A stretch of DNA of 64,000 nucleotides from Clostridia bacterium (lineage in GTDB: Bacteria; Bacillota; Clostridia; TANB77; CAG-508): positions 271,242-335,241 of the forward strand of contig JAFRNM010000001.1 in assembly GCA_017430135.1 (NCBI GenBank), written 5' to 3'. The notes under the pieces were generated by a model. The model searched no databases. It saw only the letters and a program-made list of their open reading frames with translations, and was not told the origin of the DNA. How positions within the stretch are numbered: the stretch's first letter is position 1; every line of letters starts with the position of its first letter. This document shows, piece by piece, positions 11,480 through 52,603 of the stretch. The position numbers and the translations under genes were made by a program.

Positions 11480-11528
11480 AAAAATAATTCTTTTCCAATT
11501 TAGATAATCTAATGAAAAGGGGAAAATT

Positions 11529-13259
11529 ATGAAGAAAAATAAAAAATTGGTAATTGCTATTGTAATAATTATAGTATTAATTCTTATTGTTGGAGTTGCA
11601 TTAGCATTTGTAATGAAAAAGAATAATAAAGATGCATTTTTCGAAAGTGTATCACAATTATTTGATAGTGAAAATGGTTTTATAGATAATAGAATAGAAA
11701 ACTACAATCAAAAAAAGGCTTCAAATCCTTTTGAAAATACTGGAAAAATAACATTTAATGTACCAACAGAAGGCATGGACACAAAAACAGCAGATGAGAT
11801 AAACAACACATTCAACATCAGTTTTATGGGAAATATAGATGCTCCAAATCAAAAAGCAGAAGAGTTAGTTAAAATAAACTATGATAAAGATAACAATTTC
11901 CCAATTTTATACAAAAAATCAGGAGATATACAAGCTATTAAATTAAGCAAAATCACACCAAAATATCTAGGATTAGATTTTAGTAAAAATATAAATATAA
12001 TTCCATTTGCTGAATTAAATGGAGAAAAACTAAATTCATTTGAAATAACTCAATCAGAAAAAAATAAAATAAAAACCGAATATTTACAAATAATCAAAGA
12101 TAATCTTGAAGATAAAAACTTTACAAAGGTAACAACTGAAGAGTCAAATGGATATGTATTGGAAATATCAAATAAACAATTACAAGATATTATTGTAAAA
12201 CTTATAGAAAGATTAAAACAAGACGATGAGTTTTTAGAAAAGTTTAGTTTAACTGCTGATAGCTTGGATTCAGTATTAGATAATATCAATTTAAATGAAG
12301 GAAAAACAATTATAACAATTTATCAAAAAAATCAAAAAGTTAATAGAATTATATTAGAATTAGATGACTTCATGAAAATTGATGTAAAAAAACTTGAAAA
12401 TGATAACGAACTAAGCTATGATATTAGCTTAACATTTGGCCAAGAAAATAGTAATATTATTGCAAAAGCAGTTATTGGCTTTACTGGATTAGACTCACTT
12501 GAAACTGTAAATGAAAACTATAATATTGGAATAGATTTTAATGGTTATAGTTATACTTATAATATTGAAAACGAAGTAAACTTTACAGATGACATAGAAA
12601 TAAAAGATTTTGTAGATAAAGAGTATGTTGATATAAATACATTATCTCAAACAAATCAAGCAAAACTATTCCAAGCAATTGTAGAAAGATTTAACAAAGC
12701 TAACAATGAGCTAATGCAAAAAGTAAAAATAGATCCTAAAAATTTCTGGTATAATCTTGTACCTAAATATTCTGCATCAGAAATAGATGCAGATAAAAAT
12801 GATTATTCATTGGATTTAGATAATGACGAAGATGACGAGAAAAATACAATATCAAACACAACAAATACTAACAGTACAGCTAATACAACGTCAAACACAA
12901 CAAATACAACTAATATAGCAACAAGTAGTAATACAACAAATACAACAACAAATATCAACGAATCATCTGATGATAACCTTGCAAAATCTTTCACAGAAAC
13001 AGAGAAAAATGTATTCAATTCAAAATATGAAAAATACAAGGGAGACGAAGTAGAAGGAAGCAAAGTAAAACAATTAATAATGAATATAATTGCAAACAAC
13101 ATGGCAGACGAAGAAAGACAAATAAAAGTTACAGGAGATGTAACACTTACCGGAAACGAAGTTCCAGATAGCATAGAAACTACAAAAAAATATTCAGTAG
13201 AATTTAAAAAATCAAAAGAAGGCTATGTAAACGAAGCTGTGATAAAAGAAGTAGAATAG
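11529..13259 (+). CDS. hypothetical membrane-anchored protein with Asn/Thr-rich low-complexity region
   Basis: N-terminal TM helix. NTTNT-rich tract near the C-terminus. RBS AAAGGGGAAAA. Confidence 0.5.
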   Translation: MKKNKKLVIAIVIIIVLILIVGVALAFVMKKNNKDAFFESVSQLFDSENGFIDNRIENYNQKKASNPFENTGKITFNVPTEGMDTKTADEINNTFNISFMGNIDAPNQKAEELVKINYDKDNNFPILYKKSGDIQAIKLSKITPKYLGLDFSKNINIIPFAELNGEKLNSFEITQSEKNKIKTEYLQIIKDNLEDKNFTKVTTEESNGYVLEISNKQLQDIIVKLIERLKQDDEFLEKFSLTADSLDSVLDNINLNEGKTIITIYQKNQKVNRIILELDDFMKIDVKKLENDNELSYDISLTFGQENSNIIAKAVIGFTGLDSLETVNENYNIGIDFNGYSYTYNIENEVNFTDDIEIKDFVDKEYVDINTLSQTNQAKLFQAIVERFNKANNELMQKVKIDPKNFWYNLVPKYSASEIDADKNDYSLDLDNDEDDEKNTISNTTNTNSTANTTSNTTNTTNIATSSNTTNTTTNINESSDDNLAKSFTETEKNVFNSKYEKYKGDEVEGSKVKQLIMNIIANNMADEERQIKVTGDVTLTGNEVPDSIETTKKYSVEFKKSKEGYVNEAVIKEVE

Positions 13260-13272
13260 TTATAAAAAATCA

Positions 13273-13303
13273 AAAAAAGCATATAGTAATATATGCTTTT
13301 TTA
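13273..13303 (+). terminator. rho-independent terminator (aaaagcatata gtaat atatgctttttt)
   Basis: Near-identical hairpin recurs at 16869-16902. Confidence 0.6.
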
Positions 13304-13336
13304 TATTAATCTTTTTAAAAATATCTGCCATTTTTA

Positions 13337-13365
13337 TTGACAATTTTTTAGTAAAAATATACAAT
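13337..13365 (+). promoter_or_regulatory. sigma-A-like promoter (TTGACA, 17 bp spacer, TACAAT) driving the pilin-like gene through a structured leader of about 150 nt
   Basis: Hexamers and spacing read directly from the sequence. Confidence 0.4.
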
Positions 13366-13522
13366 CATTGTAGTTGTTAAGCGTCATAAAGTAATTGATT
13401 TTATGATGAGGTCTTGCTTTACTTGAAATGCAGTGATACCAACGTAATTATACGATATCACATATATGATGTAAAGGAACTAACAATGAAAAAGTACAAA
13501 TGAATGAAAGGAGAAACACATT

Positions 13523-15274
13523 ATGACAAAATTTAACTTAGAAAAATGCAAAAGTGGTAATAAAGGTATAACACTTATTGCATTAATAATTACGATCATT
13601 GTTTTATTAATATTAGCAGGAATAACAATAAATTCATTAACAGGAAGTGATAGTGCACCAGCCAAAGCAAATGAGGCTGCACAAAAAAATGACATAGGTA
13701 CAGCAAAGGACGAAATAAGTTTATTAGCTGTAAATGCAAAAACAGAAGGCTATGAAACAGCCTATGTAGGAAATGGGGTATCAGCTGGAGATGCATCAAA
13801 AACAGTAGGACAAGCTGTAATAGATGCAGTAAAAGCAAAAAACGGAACAAATGTAGGAAAAGCATCAATAAGTGTGGAGCAAACAACAAAGAATGAAAAA
13901 CCAGATGATGCAAAAATAACAATCACAACAAGAGATTTTGAAGTTATAGGAACAATAACTATCAATGATGGAATATTAACTTGGGGAGAAGTTGAGGCAA
14001 ATATTCCAGGAATAAAAGATGTGCCAGAAACTTTAACTATGGATACTGGGGAAACAAAAACAATTAATGCAACACTAAAAGGAATTACAGGTACAATTAC
14101 TTGGACAAGTTCTGATGAGGATGTTGCAACAGTTTCTAATGGTGTTATAAGAGCAGCAGATACTTTAAAAGTTAATGATCAACCAGTAAATACTGCAACT
14201 GTAATTATAACAGCAACATTAGGAAACTATAGTGAGTCTTGTAATGTAACCGTACATAAAGTAGTAGTTGGAGATATTGTTAATTATGCACCAAGTAGAA
14301 CATATGATTGGAATTGCAATTTAGCAGAATCTGGTGATAATGCTAGTACTGCAATAAATACATTAAGTAGTGGAGAAAATGGAGCACATAGAATAACTCA
14401 ATGGAAAATATTAAATTATAATCAAAGCACAAAAATGGTAGAAATGGTTCCAAGTGAAGTTCCAACAAAGAGTAGTACGAACAGGTTGACATTGAGGGGA
14501 GCACAAGGATATAATAATGCTGTATATTTATTAAATAGCGCATGCAATAGTCTTTATGGAAAGGGTACAACAATAACTGCTAGAAGCATAAATGAAGAAG
14601 ATTTTATAAATGCAAGTGCAATAGATAATACTGATACAGACAATGGCGGAAATAAATGGTTAAATTATAGAGAAAAAACTTATGAAAATTCAAGTGTAAA
14701 AAATGCAAATAATACAAATGTTAAATATGGACAACAAAAAAATGGAGCAGCATATACATTATCATCATATAGAAATTATCCAGTAATGTATGCTTATGAT
14801 TATAATTCTGTAATTACACCAGAACCAACATTATCAACAGCTACAGCAAGTTTAGCTAAGAGTTTAGGATTAAGTGTTCAAAATAATCCAATATCAAAAA
14901 CACAAGATAGTGATTCAGGAAAAGATGGTTATAAAAAAGCTTCAACAAGTATTCAGCCATATCAAACATATTATAAAACAGGTAGTAATAGTACAACTAG
15001 AGGATTATTAGATAGTGAAAAAGCTAATGTATTAGTACCAGATGGCAATTCACAATATTGGGTGGCTTCGCGTTGCGTGAATCTGGGCAGCAGCGGTTGT
15101 AGCTTCTATGTTCGCGATGTGAACTCTGGGTACTTGAATGCTACTTGTGTATTCAGCTCTGAAACTAGCACTCACAACCCTGCGTGCGCGCTTTTCCCCG
15201 TAGTTTCTCTAAGCTCTGAACTCTTAGAACCATCATCTGCATCAGGAGTTGCTTGGGAAGTAGATGCAAATTAA
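13523..15274 (+). CDS. large surface protein with pilin-like N-terminal segment (KGITLIALIITIIVLLILAG), Big_2 Ig-like domain and GC-rich variable-region-like C-terminus
   Basis: AAAGGAGAAA RBS. N-terminus resembles the prepilin cleavage/methylation motif but has Ala instead of Glu at +5. ITWTSSDEDVATVSNGVIRA matches the Big_2 signature. Last 70 codons are markedly GC-rich. Confidence 0.6.
   Translation: MTKFNLEKCKSGNKGITLIALIITIIVLLILAGITINSLTGSDSAPAKANEAAQKNDIGTAKDEISLLAVNAKTEGYETAYVGNGVSAGDASKTVGQAVIDAVKAKNGTNVGKASISVEQTTKNEKPDDAKITITTRDFEVIGTITINDGILTWGEVEANIPGIKDVPETLTMDTGETKTINATLKGITGTITWTSSDEDVATVSNGVIRAADTLKVNDQPVNTATVIITATLGNYSESCNVTVHKVVVGDIVNYAPSRTYDWNCNLAESGDNASTAINTLSSGENGAHRITQWKILNYNQSTKMVEMVPSEVPTKSSTNRLTLRGAQGYNNAVYLLNSACNSLYGKGTTITARSINEEDFINASAIDNTDTDNGGNKWLNYREKTYENSSVKNANNTNVKYGQQKNGAAYTLSSYRNYPVMYAYDYNSVITPEPTLSTATASLAKSLGLSVQNNPISKTQDSDSGKDGYKKASTSIQPYQTYYKTGSNSTTRGLLDSEKANVLVPDGNSQYWVASRCVNLGSSGCSFYVRDVNSGYLNATCVFSSETSTHNPACALFPVVSLSSELLEPSSASGVAWEVDAN
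15059..15103 (+). repeat. VR-like segment: 27-nt exact repeat tgggtggcttcgcgttgcgtgaatctg plus GGC AGC AGC GGT TGT AGC, inside the 3' end of the pilin-like gene
   Basis: Pairs with 15348-15392. All five mismatches in the aligned 16 nt are G here versus A in the downstream copy. Confidence 0.5.
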
Positions 15275-15299
15275 TTTTTAGAATAGTGAATAAAAAACA

Positions 15300-15328
15300 T
15301 TCAGCCCGCCCTGTGTGGTCGGGCTGAA
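15300..15328 (+). terminator. GC-rich stem-loop (ttcagcccg ... cgggctgaa) plus A/T run, immediately 3' of the VR-like segment
   Basis: 9-bp stem. Its position matches the hairpin found 3' of DGR variable regions, and it may also terminate the transcript. Confidence 0.45.
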
Positions 15329-15347
15329 AAAATTAGGGCATAATTGA

Positions 15348-15392
15348 TGGGTGGCTTCGCGTTGCGTGAATCTGAACAGCAACAATTGTACT
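15348..15392 (+). repeat. TR-like / ancestral 3'-end copy: same 27-nt repeat followed by AAC AGC AAC AAT TGT ACT (AAC-rich), truncated by a partial GGGACAC element
   Basis: Non-coding. It has A wherever the coding copy differs. Confidence 0.45.
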
Positions 15393-15413
15393 TTTGGGGA
15401 CACTTTCAAAAAG
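15393..15413. repeat. partial or degenerate copy of the GGGACAC palindromic element
   Basis: ttttggggacactttcaaaaagt. Confidence 0.3.
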
Positions 15414-15899
15414 TAAATTGCCTAAAGTTTCTAAAACAAACACCTTCCAGAAACATCAATAAAAAAATTAATAAATAAAAAATATTTACAAAGACTAATA
15501 CCATGTTTGGTAAAAGGGATGTATGATGAAACCATTTTGGAACAAATTAAGAATGGGGAGTTTGATGCTACAGAAAATGAGGGGCAGTACACATTTGTCG
15601 AATTTTGTCGATGAGTTTTTCTTGAATTTTAGCACATTATGTGGTTTAATATATTTATTAAATTGCATAATGTGCAATTATTTATGAGAATTATAAAATT
15701 TTTTTATCAAGATTAATTCTAAATAATTATTTCAAATTTTTATATTATGAGAAATTTATTTATTCAAAGATTATTTCCCAATTGTATTAAATTTATTTTT
15801 TATACCTATAAAAATCCAAGAAAAGAAAAGTTTTAAGAAAGGAGGCCTTCATATAGAAATTATGCAATTTAAAATATATAAACAGAAATGGAGAAATAT

Positions 15900-16817
15900 A
15901 TGAAAGAAAGTATAAAATTATTAAGCCCTAAATTAGATGTGGTGTTTCAAGCGCTATTTGGAGAAGAAGGGAGCGAAAGAATTACAAAAGCTTTTTTGGA
16001 AAAGATTCTAGATACCACAATAGATACAATTGATTTAAATCAAAATGTTATTTTAAGAAGAGATAAAAAAGATGAAAAATTAGGAGTGTTAGATGTTTTG
16101 GCTAAAATCAATAAAAATGAGAATGTAGATATTGAGATGCAAATAGCAGAAAATGAAAATATATTAGATAGAATGGTTTATTATTGGAGTAGGTTATATG
16201 TAAGAAGTATAAAGAAAAAAGAAGATTATACTAAACTAGAAAAGAGTATTGTAATACTTATTTCTAACAAAAAAGTAAAGGGGTTAGAAGAGCTTGAATG
16301 TCATACTGAATGGAAGATATATGAAGATAAATATAAGAAAAAAATCTTGACAGACAAGTTTGAAATACATATAATAGAATTAGAAAAAATAAAAAATAAC
16401 ATTAATAGTGTTAGTGATGGATTATTAGATTGGCTAGCTTTTTTACAGAATCCAAAAACCGAAAGGGGAATCGAGAATATGGATAGTAAAGATTCAACAG
16501 AAAGAATGAAAAATCTTGAAATAATTGAAGAAGCAAGAGAAAAATTAAGAAAATTAAGTGAAGATCCGCAAATGCAACAATTAGCATGGTGGAGAGAAAA
16601 AGGGATTTATGAAGAAAATGAAAGAATAAGTAGAGAAAAGAAAATAGAAGAAGGAGAAAAAAGACTGGAAGAAGGAGAAAAAAGACTAGAAGAAGGAAAG
16701 AAAGAGTTAGAAGATGAGAAGAAAGAATTTGCTAAAAGATTAAAAGAAGGCGGAATTTCTATTGAGGAAATAATAAAATACACACATCTTACGAAAGAAG
16801 AAATAGAAAAGTTATAA
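15900..16817 (+). CDS. Rpn family recombination-promoting nuclease / putative transposase (YhgA-like, PD-(D/E)XK)
   Basis: N-terminus LLSPKLDVVFQALFGEEG... typical of the Transposase_31/Rpn family. GGAG RBS before ATG 15900. C-terminal coiled-coil tandem EEGEKRLEEGEKRLEEGKKELE. Confidence 0.7.
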   Translation: MKESIKLLSPKLDVVFQALFGEEGSERITKAFLEKILDTTIDTIDLNQNVILRRDKKDEKLGVLDVLAKINKNENVDIEMQIAENENILDRMVYYWSRLYVRSIKKKEDYTKLEKSIVILISNKKVKGLEELECHTEWKIYEDKYKKKILTDKFEIHIIELEKIKNNINSVSDGLLDWLAFLQNPKTERGIENMDSKDSTERMKNLEIIEEAREKLRKLSEDPQMQQLAWWREKGIYEENERISREKKIEEGEKRLEEGEKRLEEGKKELEDEKKEFAKRLKEGGISIEEIIKYTHLTKEEIEKL

Positions 16818-16868
16818 AGAACGGATGCATTTGGATGCATTTTCAAAACTACATAGTTATAAAAAATA

Positions 16869-16902
16869 AAAAAAAGCATATAGTAATATATATGCTTTTT
16901 TT
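16869..16902 (+). terminator. rho-independent terminator, near-identical to the one at 13273
   Basis: aaaagcatatagtaatatatatgcttttttt. Confidence 0.55.
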
Positions 16903-16917
16903 GAAAGAGATGAAAAA

Positions 16918-17778
16918 ATGGATTATATTTTAAATGCCTTGCCTAGGCAAATTGCAAATGAAATTATACAAGTTTTTAGTACATATTCAAGTTTAATAAA
17001 CACCTTGCAGGAGATACGAATTAGGGTTTCCAAGCCAATAATTTTAAAGCAAAGAAATAGTGATATAGTATTACAACACATAGTTACAAACGAAGAACTT
17101 TTACATATATTAGAACGATTTTGTGAAAACTCAATATATGCCTATAAAAATCAGATATGTGAAGGCTTTTTAACAATAAAAGGTGGACATAGAATAGGGA
17201 TAACGGGTTCATGTGTAATAGAAAATGGAAAAATAATAAATATAAAATATGTATCAAGTTTGAATATAAGAATAGCAAGAGAAGTTAAAGGTTGTGGTAA
17301 TGCAATAATAAATGAAATAATTGATATTGACAATCAAACAATATTAAACACACTATTAGTATCACCACCAGGAAAAGGAAAAACAACAATGCTAAGAGAT
17401 TTGGTTAGACAAATAAGTAATGGAATAAATGAAATAAAATTCAAAGGGAAAATAGTTGGGCTAATAGACGAAAGAGGAGAACTTGCAGCATGTTACAGAG
17501 GAATTCCACAAAATGATGTAGGAATAAGGACAGATGTAATTGAAAATGTGTCAAAAGAAAAAGGAGTAGAAATATTGCTCCGTTCAATGGCTCCAGAGAT
17601 AATAGCATGTGATGAAATAGGTACTCACGAAGATGTCCAAGCAATAGAAAAAATGTTAATTTCTGGTGTAAAGGGATTATTTACAATGCATGGAAATAAT
17701 CTGGAAGATATTAAGAAAAATACCGAAATTAATAAATTAATTGAAGAAAATCAGATTGAAAAAATTATAGTTCTTTAA
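16918..17778 (+). CDS. spoIIIAA: stage III sporulation protein AA (ATPase)
   Basis: Walker A PPGKGKTTMLRDL. First gene of an eight-gene spoIIIA operon. 286 aa. Confidence 0.85.
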   Translation: MDYILNALPRQIANEIIQVFSTYSSLINTLQEIRIRVSKPIILKQRNSDIVLQHIVTNEELLHILERFCENSIYAYKNQICEGFLTIKGGHRIGITGSCVIENGKIINIKYVSSLNIRIAREVKGCGNAIINEIIDIDNQTILNTLLVSPPGKGKTTMLRDLVRQISNGINEIKFKGKIVGLIDERGELAACYRGIPQNDVGIRTDVIENVSKEKGVEILLRSMAPEIIACDEIGTHEDVQAIEKMLISGVKGLFTMHGNNLEDIKKNTEINKLIEENQIEKIIVL

Positions 17779-17780
17779 AT

Positions 17781-17890
17781 TTTGTGACACTCTTGAATTT
17801 GGGGACACTCTTAAAAATCAAGGCTTTTGAAAAACCTTGATTTTTAAGAGTGTCCCCAAATTCATCCCCAAATTCAAGGGTGTCACAAAA
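17781..17890. repeat. palindromic intergenic element, GGGACACTCTTAAAAA family, copy 2 (about 110-bp nested perfect palindrome)
   Basis: tgtgacactcttgaatttgggg acactcttaaaaatcaagg...ccttgatttttaagagtgt ccccaaattcaagggtgtcaca. Confidence 0.8.
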
Positions 17891-22503: not shown

Positions 22504-22560
22504 CGACTTTTTGGGACACTCTTAAAAAGTCAAACTTTTTAAGAGTGTCCCAAAAAGTCG
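22504..22560. repeat. palindromic intergenic element, GGGACACTCTTAAAAA family, copy 3 (57-bp perfect palindrome)
   Basis: cgactttttgggacactcttaaaaagt caaa ctttttaagagtgtcccaaaaagtcg. Confidence 0.8.
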
Positions 22561-23798: not shown

Positions 23799-23873
23799 GG
23801 AATTTTGGGACACTCTTAAAAATCAAGGTTCTGTCTAACAGAACCTTGATTTTTAAGAGTGTCCCAAAATTCC
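23799..23873. repeat. palindromic intergenic element, GGGACACTCTTAAAAA family, copy 4 (75-bp perfect palindrome between convergent genes)
   Basis: ggaattttgggacactcttaaaaatcaaggttctgt ctaa acagaaccttgatttttaagagtgtcccaaaattcc. Confidence 0.8.
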
Positions 23874-30545: not shown

Positions 30546-30597
30546 TTTTTGGGACACTCTTAAAATTCCAGGCTTTTTGGGACACTTAAAAAAGTCA
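30546..30597. repeat. degenerate copy of the GGGACAC element (two direct half-sites, not palindromic)
   Basis: tttttgggacactcttaaaattcc aggc tttttgggacacttaaaaaagtc. Confidence 0.6.
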
Positions 30598-30686: not shown

Positions 30687-31685
30687 ATGGACGAAAATAA
30701 TCTAATGAGTCCCAATATAGAAAGTACACAAGAAGAGAGACTAGAAAATTCTTTAAGACCGCAAACATTAGAAGAATATATTGGACAAAGTAAAGTAAAA
30801 GAAAATATGAAAATTTATATAGAGGCTGCCAAAAAAAGAGAAGAGGCTTTAGACCATGTTCTTTTATATGGACCTCCAGGGCTTGGAAAAACTACGCTTT
30901 CAAATATTATTGCAAATGAAATGGGGGCAAATATAAAAATAACATCTGGTCCTGCAATAGAAAAACCTGGAGATTTAGCTTCAATTCTAACAAATCTTTC
31001 TGAATATGATATTTTGTTTATAGATGAAATACATAGAATAAATAAGAATGTAGAAGAAATTTTGTATCCCGCAATGGAAGATTACACATTAGATATTATG
31101 ATAGGAAAAGGACCAAGTGCAAGGTCAATAAGACTTGATTTACCGAAGTTTACTTTAATAGGTGCAACAACAAGAGCAGGTTCATTAACAACCCCTCTAA
31201 GAGATAGATTTGGAATTGTACATAGACTTGAATTATATTCAATTGAAGATTTAACAACAATTGTAAAAAGAACAAGCAAAATATTAGAAGTTGAAATAGA
31301 AGAAGATGCGGCAGTAGAAATTGCAAGACGTTCAAGAGGAACACCTAGAATTGCAAATAGGTTATTAAAAAGAGTTCGTGATTATGCAATGGTCTTAGGA
31401 GATGGAAATATTACTCTAAAACTTGCCAAAATGGCTTTAAATAAGCTTGAAATAGATGAACTTGGCTTGGACGAAATAGATAGAAAAATACTAGACACAA
31501 TGATAGTACAATATGCAGGGCGCCCAGTAGGAATAGAAGCATTAGCAGTAACAATAGGAGAAGAAGTTGAAACAATAGAAGATGTATATGAGCCATATCT
31601 AATCCAATTAGGCTTTATTGCAAGAACAATACGAGGAAGACAAGTACTTCCACCAGCATATAAACATTTAGGGTATGAGGAGTAG
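30687..31685 (+). CDS. ruvB: Holliday junction branch migration DNA helicase RuvB
   Basis: [25 protein letters not shown] Walker A, sensor motifs. 332 aa. Confidence 0.88.
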
Positions 31686-31690
31686 TGAAT

Positions 31691-34000
31691 ATGATAACTG
31701 AAGAAAAATTAAAACAAATTTGTGATGAACATAATATTAATTGTAAAAAAATAATTCAAACTAATCCTAATATTTTGGAATATGGCGATACTAATGATAT
31801 TTTATATGTATTAGACTTTTTAAAGCAAAAATTAAATATAGAAAGTAAGAATATAGAAAAATGTCCAAGTATTTTATGCTTGGCAATAGAAAATGTAAAA
31901 AATAATTACATGTTCTTGAAAGAAAAAGAAATAAATGAAAATGATGTTGAAACATGTTTACATATATTATCAACAGAACCTATAGAATTAAGAAAAACGT
32001 ATGAATATATAGAAGAAAATTATGGATTAGAATATTTAAATAAATATACAAGTATTTTAAGAGTTAATGAAGAAAGAATCAAGGATATAGAAAATAGATT
32101 TACAGAGTTTAGTAAAGTTCAAGTGCTTCAAGCATCTATATCAAGAAGAAAAATAGAAGAAATTGAAAAATTAGTAGAAGTATGTAAAAAGAATGAGATA
32201 AAATTAACAGGCTCTGTATTTCCTAAAACAGCAGAAGAAATAGAGAAAATAGTAGAAGTAGCTAAAGAAAATAAAATAGAACTAACAGGTTCAGTGTATC
32301 GAAAGACAGCAGAAGAAATAGAGAAAATAGTAGAAGTATGTAAAGCAAATGAAATAGAACCGAAGGGAAATGTATTTTTAAAAACAGCAGAAGAAATAAA
32401 GAAAATAGTAGAAGTATGTAAAGCAAACGAAATAGAGATAACAGCTTCAGTATTTCTAAAATCAGCCGAAGAAATAGAAAAAATAGTAGAAGTATGCAAA
32501 AAAAATGGAATAGAACCTCAAGGGAATGTATTTAAAAGAACAGCAGAAGAAATAGAGAAAATAGCAGAAGTATGTAAAGCAAATGAAATAGAGCTAACAG
32601 GTTCAGTATTTCGAAAAACAGCAAAAGAAATAAAGGAAATAGTGGAAGCGTGTAAAGAAAATAAAATAGAGCTAACAGGTTCTGCATTTTTAAAAACAGC
32701 AGAAGAAATAGAGGAAATAGTAAAAGTATGTAAAGAAAATAAAATAGAGTTAACAGGTTCAGTATTTCTAAAACCAGCTACAGAAATAGAGAAAATAGTA
32801 GAAGTATGTAAAGCAAATGAAATAGAACTAACAGGTACAATATTTCTAAAAACAGCAGAAGAGATAGAAAAAATAGTAAAAGTATGTAAGCAAAATAAAA
32901 TAGAGCCAAAAGGAAATGTATTTCAAAGAACAGCTGAGGAATTAGAAAAAATAGTAGAAGTATGTAAAGAAAAAAGAATAAAACCTGAAGGATCAGTATT
33001 TAAAAGAACAGCAGAAGAAATAGAGGAAATAGTAGAGGTATGTAAAGAAAATGAGATAGAATTAACAGGATCAGTATTTCTAAAACCAGCAGAGGAAATT
33101 AGGAAAATAGTAGAGGTATGTAAAGAAAATGAGATAGAACTAACAGGTTCAGTATTTAGAAAGACAGCAGAAGAAATAGAGAAAATAGTAAAAGTATGCA
33201 AAGAAAATAAAATAGAGCTAACAGGTTCTGCATTTTTAAAAACAGCAGAAGAAATAGAGGAAATAGTAAAAGTATGTAAAGAAAATGAAATAGAACTAAC
33301 AGGTTCAGTATTTCTAAAATCAGCTACAGAAATAAAGAAAATAGTAAAAGTATGTAAAGAAAATGAAATAGAGCTAACAGGTACAGCATTTCTAAAAACA
33401 TCAGAAGAGATAGAAAGAATAGTAAAAGTATGTAAAGAAAATGAAATAGATATGATAGGCTCTGCATTTTTTAAATCATCCGAAGAAATAGAGAAAATAA
33501 TAGAAGTATGCAAAGAAAATAAAATAGAACTAACAGGTTCTGTATTTTTAAAATCAGCAAAACAGTTAAAAGAAAATGTTGATTATATAAAAGAAGAGTT
33601 TGGAAGTGAGTACTTAATTCCACTTATAGTGTCTAAAAATAATGGAACATTAAAAAAAGTATTGCCATATCTAAAAGAAAAAGGGTATTTAGAATATGTA
33701 AAAGAAAGTGCCTCAATTTTAAGCTTAACATTAGAACAAATACAAGAAAGAGAAAAATTCATAGAACAGCAGGGACAATCGATTATTGATGATAGAGGAA
33801 AATTTAATTCGATATTTGGATTATCAAAAAAGAACTATGAAAAAAGAGTGGCAAAAACAGTAGGAAGGCCTTCAAGCGAACTTGTGGAAGTAATAAAAAA
33901 TGTTCCAGTAAATGAAGTGATAAATGGTAAAAAAGTATTAGATGAAATTACAACAGAAAAAACAAAGGAAGGAGAAACTATAGATGGAGAGAGTCGATAG
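31691..34000 (+). CDS. tandem-repeat protein: about 18 near-identical 26-aa repeats (KTAEEIEKIVEVCKENKIELTGSVFL) flanked by unique N- and C-terminal domains
   Basis: GAGGAG RBS 9 nt before ATG 31691. 78-bp periodicity from about 32150 to 33560 stays in frame. N-terminal domain shows a related motif. Confidence 0.6.
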   Translation: MITEEKLKQICDEHNINCKKIIQTNPNILEYGDTNDILYVLDFLKQKLNIESKNIEKCPSILCLAIENVKNNYMFLKEKEINENDVETCLHILSTEPIELRKTYEYIEENYGLEYLNKYTSILRVNEERIKDIENRFTEFSKVQVLQASISRRKIEEIEKLVEVCKKNEIKLTGSVFPKTAEEIEKIVEVAKENKIELTGSVYRKTAEEIEKIVEVCKANEIEPKGNVFLKTAEEIKKIVEVCKANEIEITASVFLKSAEEIEKIVEVCKKNGIEPQGNVFKRTAEEIEKIAEVCKANEIELTGSVFRKTAKEIKEIVEACKENKIELTGSAFLKTAEEIEEIVKVCKENKIELTGSVFLKPATEIEKIVEVCKANEIELTGTIFLKTAEEIEKIVKVCKQNKIEPKGNVFQRTAEELEKIVEVCKEKRIKPEGSVFKRTAEEIEEIVEVCKENEIELTGSVFLKPAEEIRKIVEVCKENEIELTGSVFRKTAEEIEKIVKVCKENKIELTGSAFLKTAEEIEEIVKVCKENEIELTGSVFLKSATEIKKIVKVCKENEIELTGTAFLKTSEEIERIVKVCKENEIDMIGSAFFKSSEEIEKIIEVCKENKIELTGSVFLKSAKQLKENVDYIKEEFGSEYLIPLIVSKNNGTLKKVLPYLKEKGYLEYVKESASILSLTLEQIQEREKFIEQQGQSIIDDRGKFNSIFGLSKKNYEKRVAKTVGRPSSELVEVIKNVPVNEVINGKKVLDEITTEKTKEGETIDGESR
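32150..33560 (+). repeat. 78-bp tandem repeat array, about 18 units, coding
   Basis: High unit-to-unit nucleotide identity. Generates spurious antisense ORFs. Confidence 0.8.
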
Positions 34001-36869: not shown

Positions 36870-36925
36870 TTTTGGGGACACTTTAGAAAGTATGAAAATA
36901 TGCTTTTTTTAAGTGTCCCAAAAAG
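36870..36925. repeat. imperfect copy of the GGGACAC palindromic element
   Basis: ttttggggacactttagaaagtatg aaaata tgctttttttaagtgtcccaaaa. Confidence 0.6.
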
Positions 36926-47057: not shown

Positions 47058-48056
47058 ATGAATTTTATTGAAAGCGTAAAAAATAGAGCGAAAGCTAATG
47101 TTAAGACAATAGTTCTTCCAGAAGCGGATGATTTAAGAGTTTTAGAAGCAACTCAAACAATTTTAAATGAAAAATTTGCAAATGTTGTTTTAGTTGGAGA
47201 TGAAGAAGCGATTTTTAATAAAGCCAAAGAAAACAACATAACTATTGAAGGCGCAAAAATTGTTAATCCTGCAAAATCTGAAAAATATGAAGAATATGTA
47301 AATTTATTAGTAGAGCTTAGAAAAAATAAAGGGATGACTGAGGAAGAAGCTAAAAAACTAGTTTTAGATCCAGTGTATTATGGAACAATGATGGTTAAAT
47401 CTGGAGAAGCTGATGGATTAGTATCAGGAGCAGCACATTCAACTGCGGATACATTAAGACCAGCACTTCAAATTTTAAAAACAGCTCCAAATACCAAACT
47501 TGTATCAGCATTTTTCGTTATGGTTGTACCAGATTGTGAATATGGGGAAAACGGAACATTTATATTTGCTGATAGTGGTTTAAACCCTAATCCAGATGTA
47601 GATGGATTAGAGGCAATAGCAACGGCTTCAGCAAAAAGTTTTGAATTATTAGTTGAAAAAAAAGCTAAAATTGCAATGCTTTCTTATTCAACATATGGAA
47701 GTGCAAAATCAGATTTAACTCAAAAAATGATAGATGCTACAAATCAAATTAAGGCTAATAACCCAAATTTAATGGTTGATGGAGAATTGCAATTAGATGC
47801 TGCAATAATTCCGGAAGTTGCTAAAATGAAGGCACCAGAAAGTAAGGTGGCTGGACAAGCCAATGTACTTATATTCCCAGACTTAAATGCTGGAAACATA
47901 GGATATAAATTAGTACAAAGATTAGCAAAAGCAGAAGCTTATGGCCCACTTTGCCAAGGCATTGCAAAACCAGTAAATGATTTATCTCGAGGATGTAGCG
48001 CACAAGATATTGTTGGTGTTGTTGCAATTACGGCATTGCAAGCTCAGAACTTATAA
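47058..48056 (+). CDS. pta: phosphate acetyltransferase
   Basis: 332-aa Pta catalytic domain. Confidence 0.9.
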
Positions 48057-48072
48057 TAGAAAGGATATAATT

Positions 48073-49260
48073 ATGAAGATTTTAGTCTTAAATTCAGGTA
48101 GTTCATCTTTAAAATACCAAGTAATAGATATGGAAAATGAACAAACAATTGCTAAAGGATATTTTGAAAGAATTGGGCAGCCAAATTCATTTCTATCACA
48201 TAAAGTAAATGGAATGAAGCATAAATTTGAAAGAGAAGCTAAAGACCATGAGGAAGCTATTTCATTTGTTCTAGACAGGCTTACAAATGACCACTATGGG
48301 GTTATTAAAGATTTAAGCGAGCTTAGTGGAATAGGACACAGAATAGTTCATGGTGGAGAAAAATTTGCAGATAGTGTTTTAATTACAGACGAAGTAATAG
48401 AAGAAATAAGAAAATGTAGTGATTTAGCGCCTCTTCATAATCCAGCTGCAATACTTGGAATAGAAGCATGTAAAAAAGTAGTACCTAACATGAAAATGGT
48501 TGCAGTATTTGATACAGCATTCCATCAAACTATACCAAAATCAAGATACATTTATCCAATACCATATAAATATTATGAAAATTATTCGGTTCGTAAATAT
48601 GGATTCCATGGCACGTCACATCAATATGTAGCAAACAGAGTAGCTGAAATGCTTGGAAAAGATGTAAAAGATTTAAAAATTGTTAGTTGTCATTTGGGAC
48701 AAGGTGCAAGTATTTGCGCTGTTCAAAATGGAAAATCTGTTGAAACAAGCATGGGGTTAACACCGCTTGGTGGAATTCCAATGGGAACAAGAAGCGGAGA
48801 TTTAGATCCATCTGTGCTAACTTATGTTATGAAAAAGGAAAATCTATCAGCAGATGAAATGGAAGAAATATTAAATAAAAAATCAGGCGTTTACGGTGTT
48901 TCTCGTGTTTCTATGGATTTTAGAGATATTGAATTTGAAGCACTTGTGGGAGGAACACATGCAAAACTTTCTTTAGATATTTTCTGTTATTTAATAGCAG
49001 GTTATATAATGAAATGTGCAGTTGCAATGGGCGGTATTGATGTACTTACATTCACAGCAGGTGTAGGTGAAAAAAGCCCATATTGCAGAGAACACATTTG
49101 CAAAAACTTGGAGTTCATGGGAGCAAAACTTGATTTAACAAAAAATGAAGTAAAAGGGGAAGAAGCAATTATTTCTAAAGATAATTCTTCTATCCAAATT
49201 TGCGTAGTTCCTACAAATGAGGAGCTTATGATAGCAAGAGAAACTATGAAATTAATATAA
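48073..49260 (+). CDS. ackA: acetate kinase (paralog 1)
   Basis: [20 protein letters not shown], and the ATP-binding motifs. AAAGGA RBS before ATG 48073, so the longer upstream extension is rejected. Confidence 0.88.
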
Positions 49261-49279: not shown

Positions 49280-50479
49280 ATGAAAATTTTAGTACTAAAC
49301 TGTGGTAGTTCATCATTAAAATACCAATTAATCAACATGGAAACAGAAGAAGTTATGGCTTCTGGAAAATATGAGAGAATAGGAGAAGAAGAAGCATACA
49401 TTACACACAAAGTAAATGGGCAAAAAATTGAAATAAAACATCCAGCATATAATCATGAAGAAGCAATAGACTTTACTTTAAAACAATTAGTAAACCCAGA
49501 ATACAAAGTTGTAGATTCATTAGACGAAGTAAATGCAATTGGACACAGAGTTGTTCATGGTGGAGAATATTTCTCAACACCAGTTCTAATTACAGAAGAT
49601 GTAATAAACAAAGTAGAATTAGCAGCAGAACTTGCACCATTACACAATAAAGCAGCTGCTCAAGGAATGAGAGCTTGCCAAGCTGTTATGCCTGGTAAAC
49701 CAATGGTAGTTGTATTTGATACAGCATTCCATCAATCAATTCCAAAAGAAAGATACATTTACCCAATTCCTTATGAATATTACAAAAAATATGGAATTAG
49801 AAAATATGGATTCCATGGTACATCACATCAATATGTAGCAAATAGATTAGCAGAAATTGAAAATAAATCAATTGAAGATTTAAAAATAGTAACATGTCAT
49901 TTAGGACAAGGTTCAAGTATATGTGCTGTTAAAGGTGGAAAATCAGTTGATACAAGTATGGGATTAACACCACTTGCAGGTATACCAATGGTTACAAGAA
50001 GTGGGGATTTAGACCCATCTGTTGTAACATACATTATGAAAAAAGAAAATATGTCAGCAGAAGAAGTTGAAAACATGTTAAACAAAGAATCTGGAGTAAT
50101 GGGAATTTCAGGTCTAGCACCAGATTTTAGAGTAATAGAATCAGCTTCTTATGAAGACAATGAAAGAGCTGCTTTAGCAATGGATGCCTTCAAATATGCA
50201 ATAGCAGGATTTATAGCAAAATATGCAGTTGCAATGAATGGAATAGATGCAGTAGTATTCACAGGTGGAGTTGGAGAAAATCAAATAAATATTAGAAAAG
50301 GAATTTGTAAACAATTAGAATTCATGGGCTTAATTATAGATGAAGAAGCAAATAACATTAGAAGTGAAGAAAGATTAATAACAAAACCAGAATCTAAAAT
50401 TAGAGCCTATATAATTCCAACAAACGAAGAATTAATGATAGCTAAAGAAACTGAAAAATTAGTAAAATATATCAAATAA
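49280..50479 (+). CDS. ackA: acetate kinase (paralog 2)
   Basis: [16 protein letters not shown]. Roughly 55-60% identical to paralog 1. GGAGAGG RBS. Confidence 0.85.
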   Translation: MKILVLNCGSSSLKYQLINMETEEVMASGKYERIGEEEAYITHKVNGQKIEIKHPAYNHEEAIDFTLKQLVNPEYKVVDSLDEVNAIGHRVVHGGEYFSTPVLITEDVINKVELAAELAPLHNKAAAQGMRACQAVMPGKPMVVVFDTAFHQSIPKERYIYPIPYEYYKKYGIRKYGFHGTSHQYVANRLAEIENKSIEDLKIVTCHLGQGSSICAVKGGKSVDTSMGLTPLAGIPMVTRSGDLDPSVVTYIMKKENMSAEEVENMLNKESGVMGISGLAPDFRVIESASYEDNERAALAMDAFKYAIAGFIAKYAVAMNGIDAVVFTGGVGENQINIRKGICKQLEFMGLIIDEEANNIRSEERLITKPESKIRAYIIPTNEELMIAKETEKLVKYIK

Positions 50480-52541: not shown

Positions 52542-52603
52542 GACTTTTTGGGACACTCTTAAAATTCAAGGTTTTCGACTTTTTAAGAGTGTCCCAAAAA
52601 GTC
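52542..52603. repeat. palindromic intergenic element, GGGACACTCTTAAAAA family, copy 7
   Basis: gactttttgggacactcttaaaa ttcaaggttttc gactttttaagagtgtcccaaaaagtc. Confidence 0.8.

Follow-up and report, generated by a model that had tools for sequence, protein, structure and literature searches.

The 3′ end of a gene for a 583-aa pilin-like protein, and the intergenic DNA that follows it, were analyzed in a 64,000-nt stretch from an uncultured Clostridia bacterium (GenBank assembly GCA_017430135.1, contig JAFRNM010000001.1, positions 271,242 to 335,241, forward strand). The whole stretch is referred to as the window, and coordinates are window positions unless a contig is named. An original prediction, made from the letters alone, had described the gene end as the variable repeat (VR) of a diversity-generating retroelement (DGR), with a truncated copy of the template repeat (TR) downstream and no reverse transcriptase (RT). 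The description held: the truncated copy, here called the TR stump, corresponds to TR positions 1-41 of a complete DGR on contig L002, and the layout of the two loci is the same. The features compared were:

13523 to 15274, forward strand: target gene, 583 aa; reading frame intact, C-terminal domain large with the VR at its end.
15059 to 15203, forward strand: VR, 145 nt, ending in CCCCGTAG; compared with the L002 TR, and the same in all recovered copies.
15204 to 15235, forward strand: VR-specific 3′ flank, TTTCTCTAAGCTCTGAACTCTTAGAACC..., at the VR/TR divergence point and in the position of an element like the initiation of mutagenic homing (IMH) sequence.
15300 to 15328, forward strand: GC-rich hairpin with a 9-bp stem (TTCAGCCCG/CGGGCTGAA) and an 11-nt loop, between the stop codon and the TR stump.
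15348 to 15390, forward strand: TR stump, 40-43 nt from the start of a ~145-nt TR; homology to L002 ends at 15388.
15388 to 15419, forward strand: junction, attributed to deletion or illegitimate recombination, with a solo repeat half (TTTTGGGGACACT); native intergenic DNA lies right of the break.

The 27-mer TGGGTGGCTTCGCGTTGCGTGAATCTG occurs at 15059, inside the open reading frame (ORF), and at 15348, 74 nt beyond the stop codon. The window holds exactly these two copies, at the sites that had been claimed; no third site was found even with 3 mismatches, and none was expected (100 shuffles). The repeat lengthens to 43 nt at 88% identity, with 5 mismatches (repeat positions 28, 29, 35, 37 and 38), and at each of them the coding copy has G where the downstream copy has A. 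Of the 43 nt downstream, 10 are adenines, and the probability that all 5 mismatches fall on A by chance is C(10,5)/C(43,5) = 2.6e-4 (hypergeometric), which bears out the predicted G-for-A pattern. The predicted length of about 45 nt was slightly too long: the copy ends after 40-43 nt (15387-15390), and the AGC TTC versus ACT TTT differences lie past the junction. The GC-rich island described at the gene end was also recovered, in the last ~250 nt of the gene (GC 0.44-0.50 over 15000-15249, and ~0.21-0.37 elsewhere in the gene).

More than 1000 homologues of the 583-aa protein were found. The closest outside the window-type cluster, P0002 (71% identical), is encoded on 200-kb contigs within a conjugative element (ParB, type IV secretion system (T4SS) coupling protein, TrbL, T4SS pilin), and its locus reads target, MutS_I, bAvd, RVT_1 (opposite strand), MutS_I by Pfam. 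On L002 the VR (11486-11630) and TR (11776-11920) are 145-153 nt each, and every difference between them falls on a TR adenine (18/18 over 145 nt, 20/20 over 153 nt); the control contig L019 likewise gave 18/18 TR-VR differences at A. Judged by sequence, this locus is a textbook DGR of 'architecture D', the class defined by Avd together with a MutS-like accessory gene (MSL) (Wu et al., 2018, NAR 46:11; PMC5758913). It shares with that class a TR, avd, a DGR-type RT, small MutS domain-I proteins, adenine-specific changes and a VR at the 3′ end of the target. It differs in that the RT lies on the strand opposite the TR and in that two MSL genes flank it. Within L002 11776-14288, the RT gene (12906-13871) is also opposite in strand to avd, and the MSL genes lie on either side of the avd-RT pair. 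On L001 and L020 the RT was called as a merged or extended gene and avd was left uncalled, a gene-calling difference only.

Window positions 13577-15388 aligned to L002 10037-11816 at 80.7%, and the alignment stopped there. The stop-codon region, hairpin, spacer and TR positions 1-41 were nearly identical in the two, and the distance from VR start to TR start was 289 nt in the window and 290 nt in L002. At position 42 the stump has T, as does the window VR, whereas L002 has C; the stump is therefore a remnant of the window's own TR and no recent copy of the one in L002. A longer alignment, with the L002 TR in place of the missing part, kept the adenine bias. Over 145 nt the window VR showed 20 differences, 16 at TR adenines and 4 at C, and over 153 nt 18/22 differences were at A (Fisher p = 1e-8); 1 of the 4 C differences is the TR-lineage difference at position 42. 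The TR adenines are placed by the reading frame in 16 AAY codons, and it is at those codons that the window VR departs from the TR. As expected of a DGR target, the VR closes an ORF, keeps register with its homologous counterpart in a demonstrably active DGR, and has its variable sites at AAY codons. The homologous TR that a DGR should have shows the A-bias here in the 40-43 nt that remain of it. Compared with architecture D, the window has target and VR still in place and the TR only as its first 43 nt; RT, avd and MSL are lacking.

Past its 3′ end the VR runs into the flank TTTCTCTAAGCTCTGAACTCTTAGAACC, which also follows the VRs of L002 and of L011, a contig from a rabbit Clostridia metagenome-assembled genome (MAG); its start (TTTCTCTA) follows the VR of the sister genome L017. 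TRs continue otherwise beyond the divergence point, with ATTCTATATCACTG. The hairpin folds at -12.5 kcal/mol (z = -4.26), and as good a fold was obtained in 0/200 shuffles. Its sequence is identical in L002, and analogous GC-rich inverted repeats follow the L011 and L017 VRs. The locus resembles that of Bordetella phage BPP-1 (Mtd; IMH, hairpin/cruciform) in the GC-rich end of the VR/TR homology, the VR-specific flank and the GC-rich inverted repeat downstream, and by analogy to BPP-1 the flank would act as an IMH-like element. In BPP-1-type hairpins a 7-10 bp stem carries a 4-nt GRNA loop, and the distance to the VR is 4-34 bp (Guo et al., 2011; PMC3240598). The prediction of a hairpin just 3′ of the VR is therefore to be taken more loosely: a stable GC-rich hairpin with a 9-bp stem is present, but its 11-nt loop and its position, ~96 nt past the end of the VR and 19 nt ahead of the TR, differ from the phage type. 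A role as terminator, or as a 5′ element in the transcript of the TR, is another possibility. An Rfam search of 13000-17200 matched no RNA family.

The machinery of a DGR was sought in about 80 kb, comprising the window and the conjugative element that begins near its right end. No match to the L002 RT, Avd or either MSL protein was found in the 64-kb window by tblastn (best E 0.89), and Pfam searches of 41 of the larger window ORFs gave no RVT, which agrees with the predicted lack of an RT. The Pfam content of the window is housekeeping (Clp ATPase, NrdD/G, YebC, spoIIIA, glycolysis, acetate kinase and others) and three tyrosine recombinases. A tyrosine integrase gene (61443-62738) marks the start of the conjugative element, which is inserted beside a GH30 gene. 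Contigs from this strain extend the element (L029 matches window 61412-64000 at 100%, and L030 matches L029 at 99.7%), and the 16.5 kb past the right end held no RT, Avd, MSL, target homologue or TR 21-mer. Its genes run HTH, replication protein, TopA, FtsK-gamma, ParB, a 146-aa protein, relaxase, coupling protein, TrbL, T4SS pilin, PrgI, TraC-like, VirB4-like and M23 peptidase. The segment from ParB to the coupling protein, where an L001-type element carries its DGR, holds the 146-aa protein and relaxase only. Neither an RT nor an accessory gene (avd, with or without MSL), as expected of a functional DGR, was thus present in the DNA inspected. The element occupies the same site in related strains (L026, L028). 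It is distantly related to the DGR-bearing element of L001 (146-aa protein and ParB ~30-50% identical).

A 21-mer common to the VRs and TRs of the family (TGGGTGGCTTCGCGTTGCGTG) was scanned in genome, viral and metagenome contigs, none of which included the window locus. Genome contigs gave 2 loci, in L011 and in L010 (Vicinamibacterales, probably by chance); viral contigs gave 0 matches; and metagenome contigs gave 1 locus, L012, without similarity to window 13001-17200. The L002 RT as a search query gave 2582 matches, nearly all lacking an organism name, and so says nothing on the window's MAG.

The VR of the window was found in one state in the proteins P0001, P0121 and P0122 and in the loci L004-L009 (six contigs from different samples). 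Window-type copies do vary elsewhere (G-to-W in P0001; 1 mismatch in 4200 nt in L005). The VR hypervariability among otherwise identical copies that marks a working DGR was not seen in the recovered assembled window-type copies, and a scan of metagenome contigs for the window-specific VR flank gave 0 matches. By contrast, L002 and L019 differ at 21/4288 nt, all in the VR (11507 to 11603), and each VR departs from the shared TR at adenines only. P0002, P0125 and P0124, which form a 90%-identity cluster, carry three different VRs and match outside the VR over the aligned residues, save the first residues of the 171-aa fragment P0124. The cross-strain comparison proposed with the original prediction therefore gave no A-position variation and a single VR in the window type, and variation at adenines only in its relatives. 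Invariance on the window side against variation in the intact element is what a dead DGR predicts.

With considerable confidence, the locus is taken to be an inactivated (fossil) DGR of the Avd plus MSL architecture with a frozen VR. In the intact form a TR of ~145 nt, 290 nt downstream of the VR, would be transcribed, and its RNA would be reverse-transcribed by the DGR RT with Avd and MSL. Errors would arise at template adenines, the cDNA would replace the VR, and 16 AAY codons would be recoded in the C-terminal, C-type-lectin-like tip of the pilin-like protein at the cell surface. The window would have reached its present form when TR position ~43 became fused, by deletion or illegitimate recombination, to native intergenic DNA that lies ahead of an Rpn gene; everything from TR position 44 through the post-TR spacer to MSL, avd and RT would have been lost in that event. 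With template and enzyme lost the VR would be frozen, left in one state (…NLGSSGCSFYVRDVNSGYLNATCVFSSETSTHNPAC…) at the end of a gene that stays intact. Further features bear on the break and on its surroundings:

13256 to 13302, forward strand: left ~48-nt terminator-like direct repeat (ATAGTTATAAAAAAT-AAAAAAAGCATATAGTAATATATGCTTTTTT), bounding the cassette; two copies in the window.
15505 to 15574, forward strand: rearrangement scars, two short fragments that in L017 flank the ADH-like gene upstream of the target.
15617 to 15690, forward strand: imperfect 35-nt palindrome at the left border of the Rpn unit; L011 has it conserved ahead of its own Rpn gene.
15888 to 16817, forward strand: Rpn/PDDEXK_2 recombination-promoting nuclease or putative transposase gene, at the place of MSL, avd and RT in the intact relative.
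16853 to 16901, forward strand: right ~48-nt terminator-like direct repeat, just upstream of spoIIIAA (16918).

Over the spoIIIA operon the window and the sister genome (L017/L018) share 98.9% identity; at the same site the sister genome has a different decayed cassette. This cassette comprises the 48-nt repeat, a paralogous target with a short GC-rich VR-like end, a hairpin, an MSL gene, the N-terminal half of avd, an IS200-like fragment, the 48-nt repeat again, a DUF234 gene and TACTTTTGGGGACA…; the last ~60 nt of the Rpn gene, the 48-nt repeat for the third time and spoIIIAA follow at its right end. The IS200-like (Y1_Tnp) fragment lies at ~9687-9830 of L017. All three ~48-nt repeats of L017 (6735-6781, 9884-9930 and 11275-11323) stand at cassette boundaries at this chromosomal site, and the repeat looks like a recombination hot spot or a cassette-boundary sequence.

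Right of the break, window 15389-15419 matched L017 11150-11180 at 93.5%, ~40 nt past the DUF234 gene in L017, and window 16754 onward matched L017 11176 onward. The TR is joined to this resident DNA at a microhomology of ~2 nt (TA/TAC), and the junction is therefore read as a deletion or illegitimate recombination and not as an insertion into the TR. The GGGGACAC motif was present after the stump, as the original prediction had said, but it is one solo half of a dispersed palindromic intergenic repeat. It was rejected as a mobile element that cut the TR, the half-repeat being already at this position in L017. The dispersed repeat (TTTTGGGACACT) has 16 half-sites in the window against 1.15 expected. 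Most form inverted pairs that follow genes, with 35-55 nt between the halves, in a REP-like or terminator-like manner; the positions are 7021-7102, 15392-15404 (the solo half), 17797-17861, 22508-22556, 23802-23870, 30546-30586, 36870-36924 and 52545-52600. The two scars (15505-15528, 100% identical to L017 5950-5973; 15522-15574, 96% identical to L017 6584-6636) indicate that the region between the stump and the Rpn gene was repeatedly rearranged.

The neighboring gene had been named as an Rpn-family gene, and it scored above both curated cutoffs (PF12784, 135.3 bits, cutoff 27.4; TIGR01784, 113.5 bits, cutoff 52.1). The gene does not belong to a DGR. A recent insertion of the Rpn gene into the TR was also rejected; the gene is ancestral at the site and mostly deleted in L017. 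On the sequence comparison with L017, the Rpn gene and the GGGGACAC half-repeat are old residents of the intergenic region.

Other histories were weighed against deletion in place. A different route to the same frozen outcome is import: the site would never have had a working copy of this cassette, and a DGR piece borne on an integrative conjugative element (ICE), with most of the target and 43 nt of TR, would have taken the place of the 3′ portion of a paralogue already at the site. Its left end would have entered by homologous recombination within the conserved 5′ portion of the gene and its right end by illegitimate recombination, which Rpn may have promoted. The gene is indeed a mosaic: its promoter and first ~490 nt match the gene resident in L017 at 88%, the rest is L002-like with an identity swinging from 52% to 98% per 100 nt, and the L017 gene has another C-terminal VR type. 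The right junction, with its ~2 nt of microhomology, abuts a repeat half-site, and an Rpn unit also follows a DGR without MSL, avd and RT in the unrelated MAG of L011/L013. Against import, the MSL gene and half avd retained at this site in L017 mean that a complete DGR had its place there at one time, the half-repeat and the Rpn gene are common to L017 and so older than the event, no donor-recipient pair was found, and the involvement of Rpn is pure inference. Import is accordingly a possible but doubtful history, and deletion in situ is favored on sequence grounds because L017 keeps MSL and avd remnants at the same site.

In a rival reading the VR is still served in trans: an intact DGR somewhere else in the genome, perhaps on a mobile element, would supply the RT together with a complete TR of this family, and the stump would be irrelevant. 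DGRs with remote targets are known, e.g. in Treponema denticola. The VR 3′ flank and hairpin are kept as in the active L002, an L002-type TR fits the window VR at all but 4 non-A positions, and a conjugative element lies in the same genome just beyond the right end of the window. Yet every recovered copy has the same VR, where the VR of the intact relative varies between otherwise identical contigs; the window and the 16.5 kb of adjacent element gave no RT, Avd or MSL and no TR 21-mer; window-type and L002-type elements share no sample; and the family 21-mer is missing from the viral contigs and very rare in the genome and metagenome collections. Of the two fates offered originally, 'decayed or trans-served', decay is favored by the lack of RT, Avd and MSL in the ~80 kb inspected and by the invariant VR; service in trans is improbable, and a helper DGR elsewhere in the genome is presumably absent. 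That the 27/43-nt repeat arose by chance or by slippage duplication, with the G/A pattern a coincidence, is barely credible. The downstream copy is short, and nothing else speaks for this. The repeat had 0 expected chance matches, the stump is identical in sequence to a genuine TR, shares its register and stands beside the same hairpin, and the A-bias is significant both in the stump and at full length.

Several points nonetheless weigh against the reading as an inactivated DGR. The inspected DNA is about 80 kb of the genome, and a DGR may lie elsewhere. The recovered window-type copies belong to one near-clonal strain (99.98-100% identical), which gives the VR invariance limited power. The cis elements that a recipient VR needs (3′ flank, hairpin) are intact. 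Three non-A differences to the L002 TR (positions 81, 87 and 105) may reflect divergence of the TR lineages or drift after inactivation, and are ambiguous in origin because the window TR is missing beyond position 43. The L017 target has a different, shorter VR, and descent in situ from one ancestral cassette is no more than plausible.

As the ORF, VR 3′ flank and hairpin are intact and the VR fits the L002 TR as described, a dormant acceptor is conceivable: acquisition of an ICE-borne DGR of the L002 type could restart diversification of the chromosomal gene in trans. This was judged unlikely. ICE-borne DGRs with Avd and Msl diversify type V pilin tips in Bacteroides (bioRxiv 10.1101/2024.11.15.621889). 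The DGR type described here resembles them in its carriage on a conjugative element, Msl, the C-type-lectin-like head of a pilus-type protein and horizontal cassette transfer. It differs in its uncultured Clostridia host and in an N-terminus of type IV pilin / N-methylation type, not type V; the window copy, moreover, is chromosomal and dead.

The 583-aa protein begins with a hydrophobic, pilin-like N-terminus (KGITLIALIITIIVLLILAG), which is followed by an Ig-like region. Of the predicted architecture, the pilin-like start and the Big_2 domain were both sub-threshold in the window protein itself. The family consensus GITLIALVxTIIxLLIL is present in its N-terminus; PF07963 (N_methyl) was matched by 20/65 family members, and the window protein had no match at E <= 0.01. 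Big_2 scored 18.1 bits in the window protein (Pfam cutoff 22.8) and is on record for several homologues. A profile search of PDB sequences matched pilins weakly (E ~0.1). The C-terminal 329 aa were modelled at pLDDT 93; Foldseek searches against PDB and BFVD gave nothing significant. The closest known counterparts of such a tip are DGR variable proteins with a C-type-lectin fold (Treponema denticola TvpA, PDB 2y3c) and the Legionella Lcl C-terminal domain (PDB 8q4e). Weak but consistent indications suggest that the target VR is displayed on a C-type-lectin-like fold. The gene product, if expressed as expected, is presumably a surface or adhesin protein of fixed specificity.

For many homologues no RT lies close by; they occur singly between housekeeping genes or in arrays of paralogues. 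Their C-terminal ends aligned to the L002/L011 TRs with mostly TR-adenine differences, plus 10-16 non-adenine ones (and, in one stand-alone homologue, a 3-nt indel), and may be read as older fossils. The family would thus run from active (L002) through freshly frozen (the window, stump present) to these older fossils. In the rabbit-gut MAG of L011/L013, an Rpn unit takes the place of MSL, avd and RT behind a full-length TR and a piece of the post-TR spacer. This unit (L011 6912-7983, the same as L013 12076-13147) is 75% identical in nucleotides to window 15617-16817 and has the same upstream palindrome. An Rpn gene thus stands beside an RT-less DGR in two diverged genomes, and any role for it in truncation or capture is conjecture. 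Stand-alone pilin-like paralogues with VR-shaped ends may be a reservoir of former or occasional DGR targets.

The window offers a clean example of DGR death, with the intact relative as a matched positive control: one junction inside the TR would remove template and enzyme together and fix the ligand-binding tip. The architecture is known and the decay ordinary, and nothing new on DGR mechanism follows. DGR surveys normally start from the RT, so that RT-less remnants go uncounted. The family suggests that DGR loss with fixation of one variant is a recurrent fate, and hints that RT-less fossil targets are common among its pilin-like proteins.

Some minor observations were also made. A rabbit-gut Clostridia MAG (GCA_947630545.1) has at least 4 target paralogues (P0007-P0010), two of which are each preceded by a 302-aa tyrosine integrase (L013 8928-9836; L016 5838-6746). 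A tandem array of related genes was seen in L022 (86-7963). In the window, a 771-aa ORF (31685-34000) has scattered Pfam matches, none individually significant, and is probably compositionally biased or repetitive. Two full-length acetate kinase genes stand in tandem (47977-49260 and 49280-50479), directly after a phosphotransacetylase gene.

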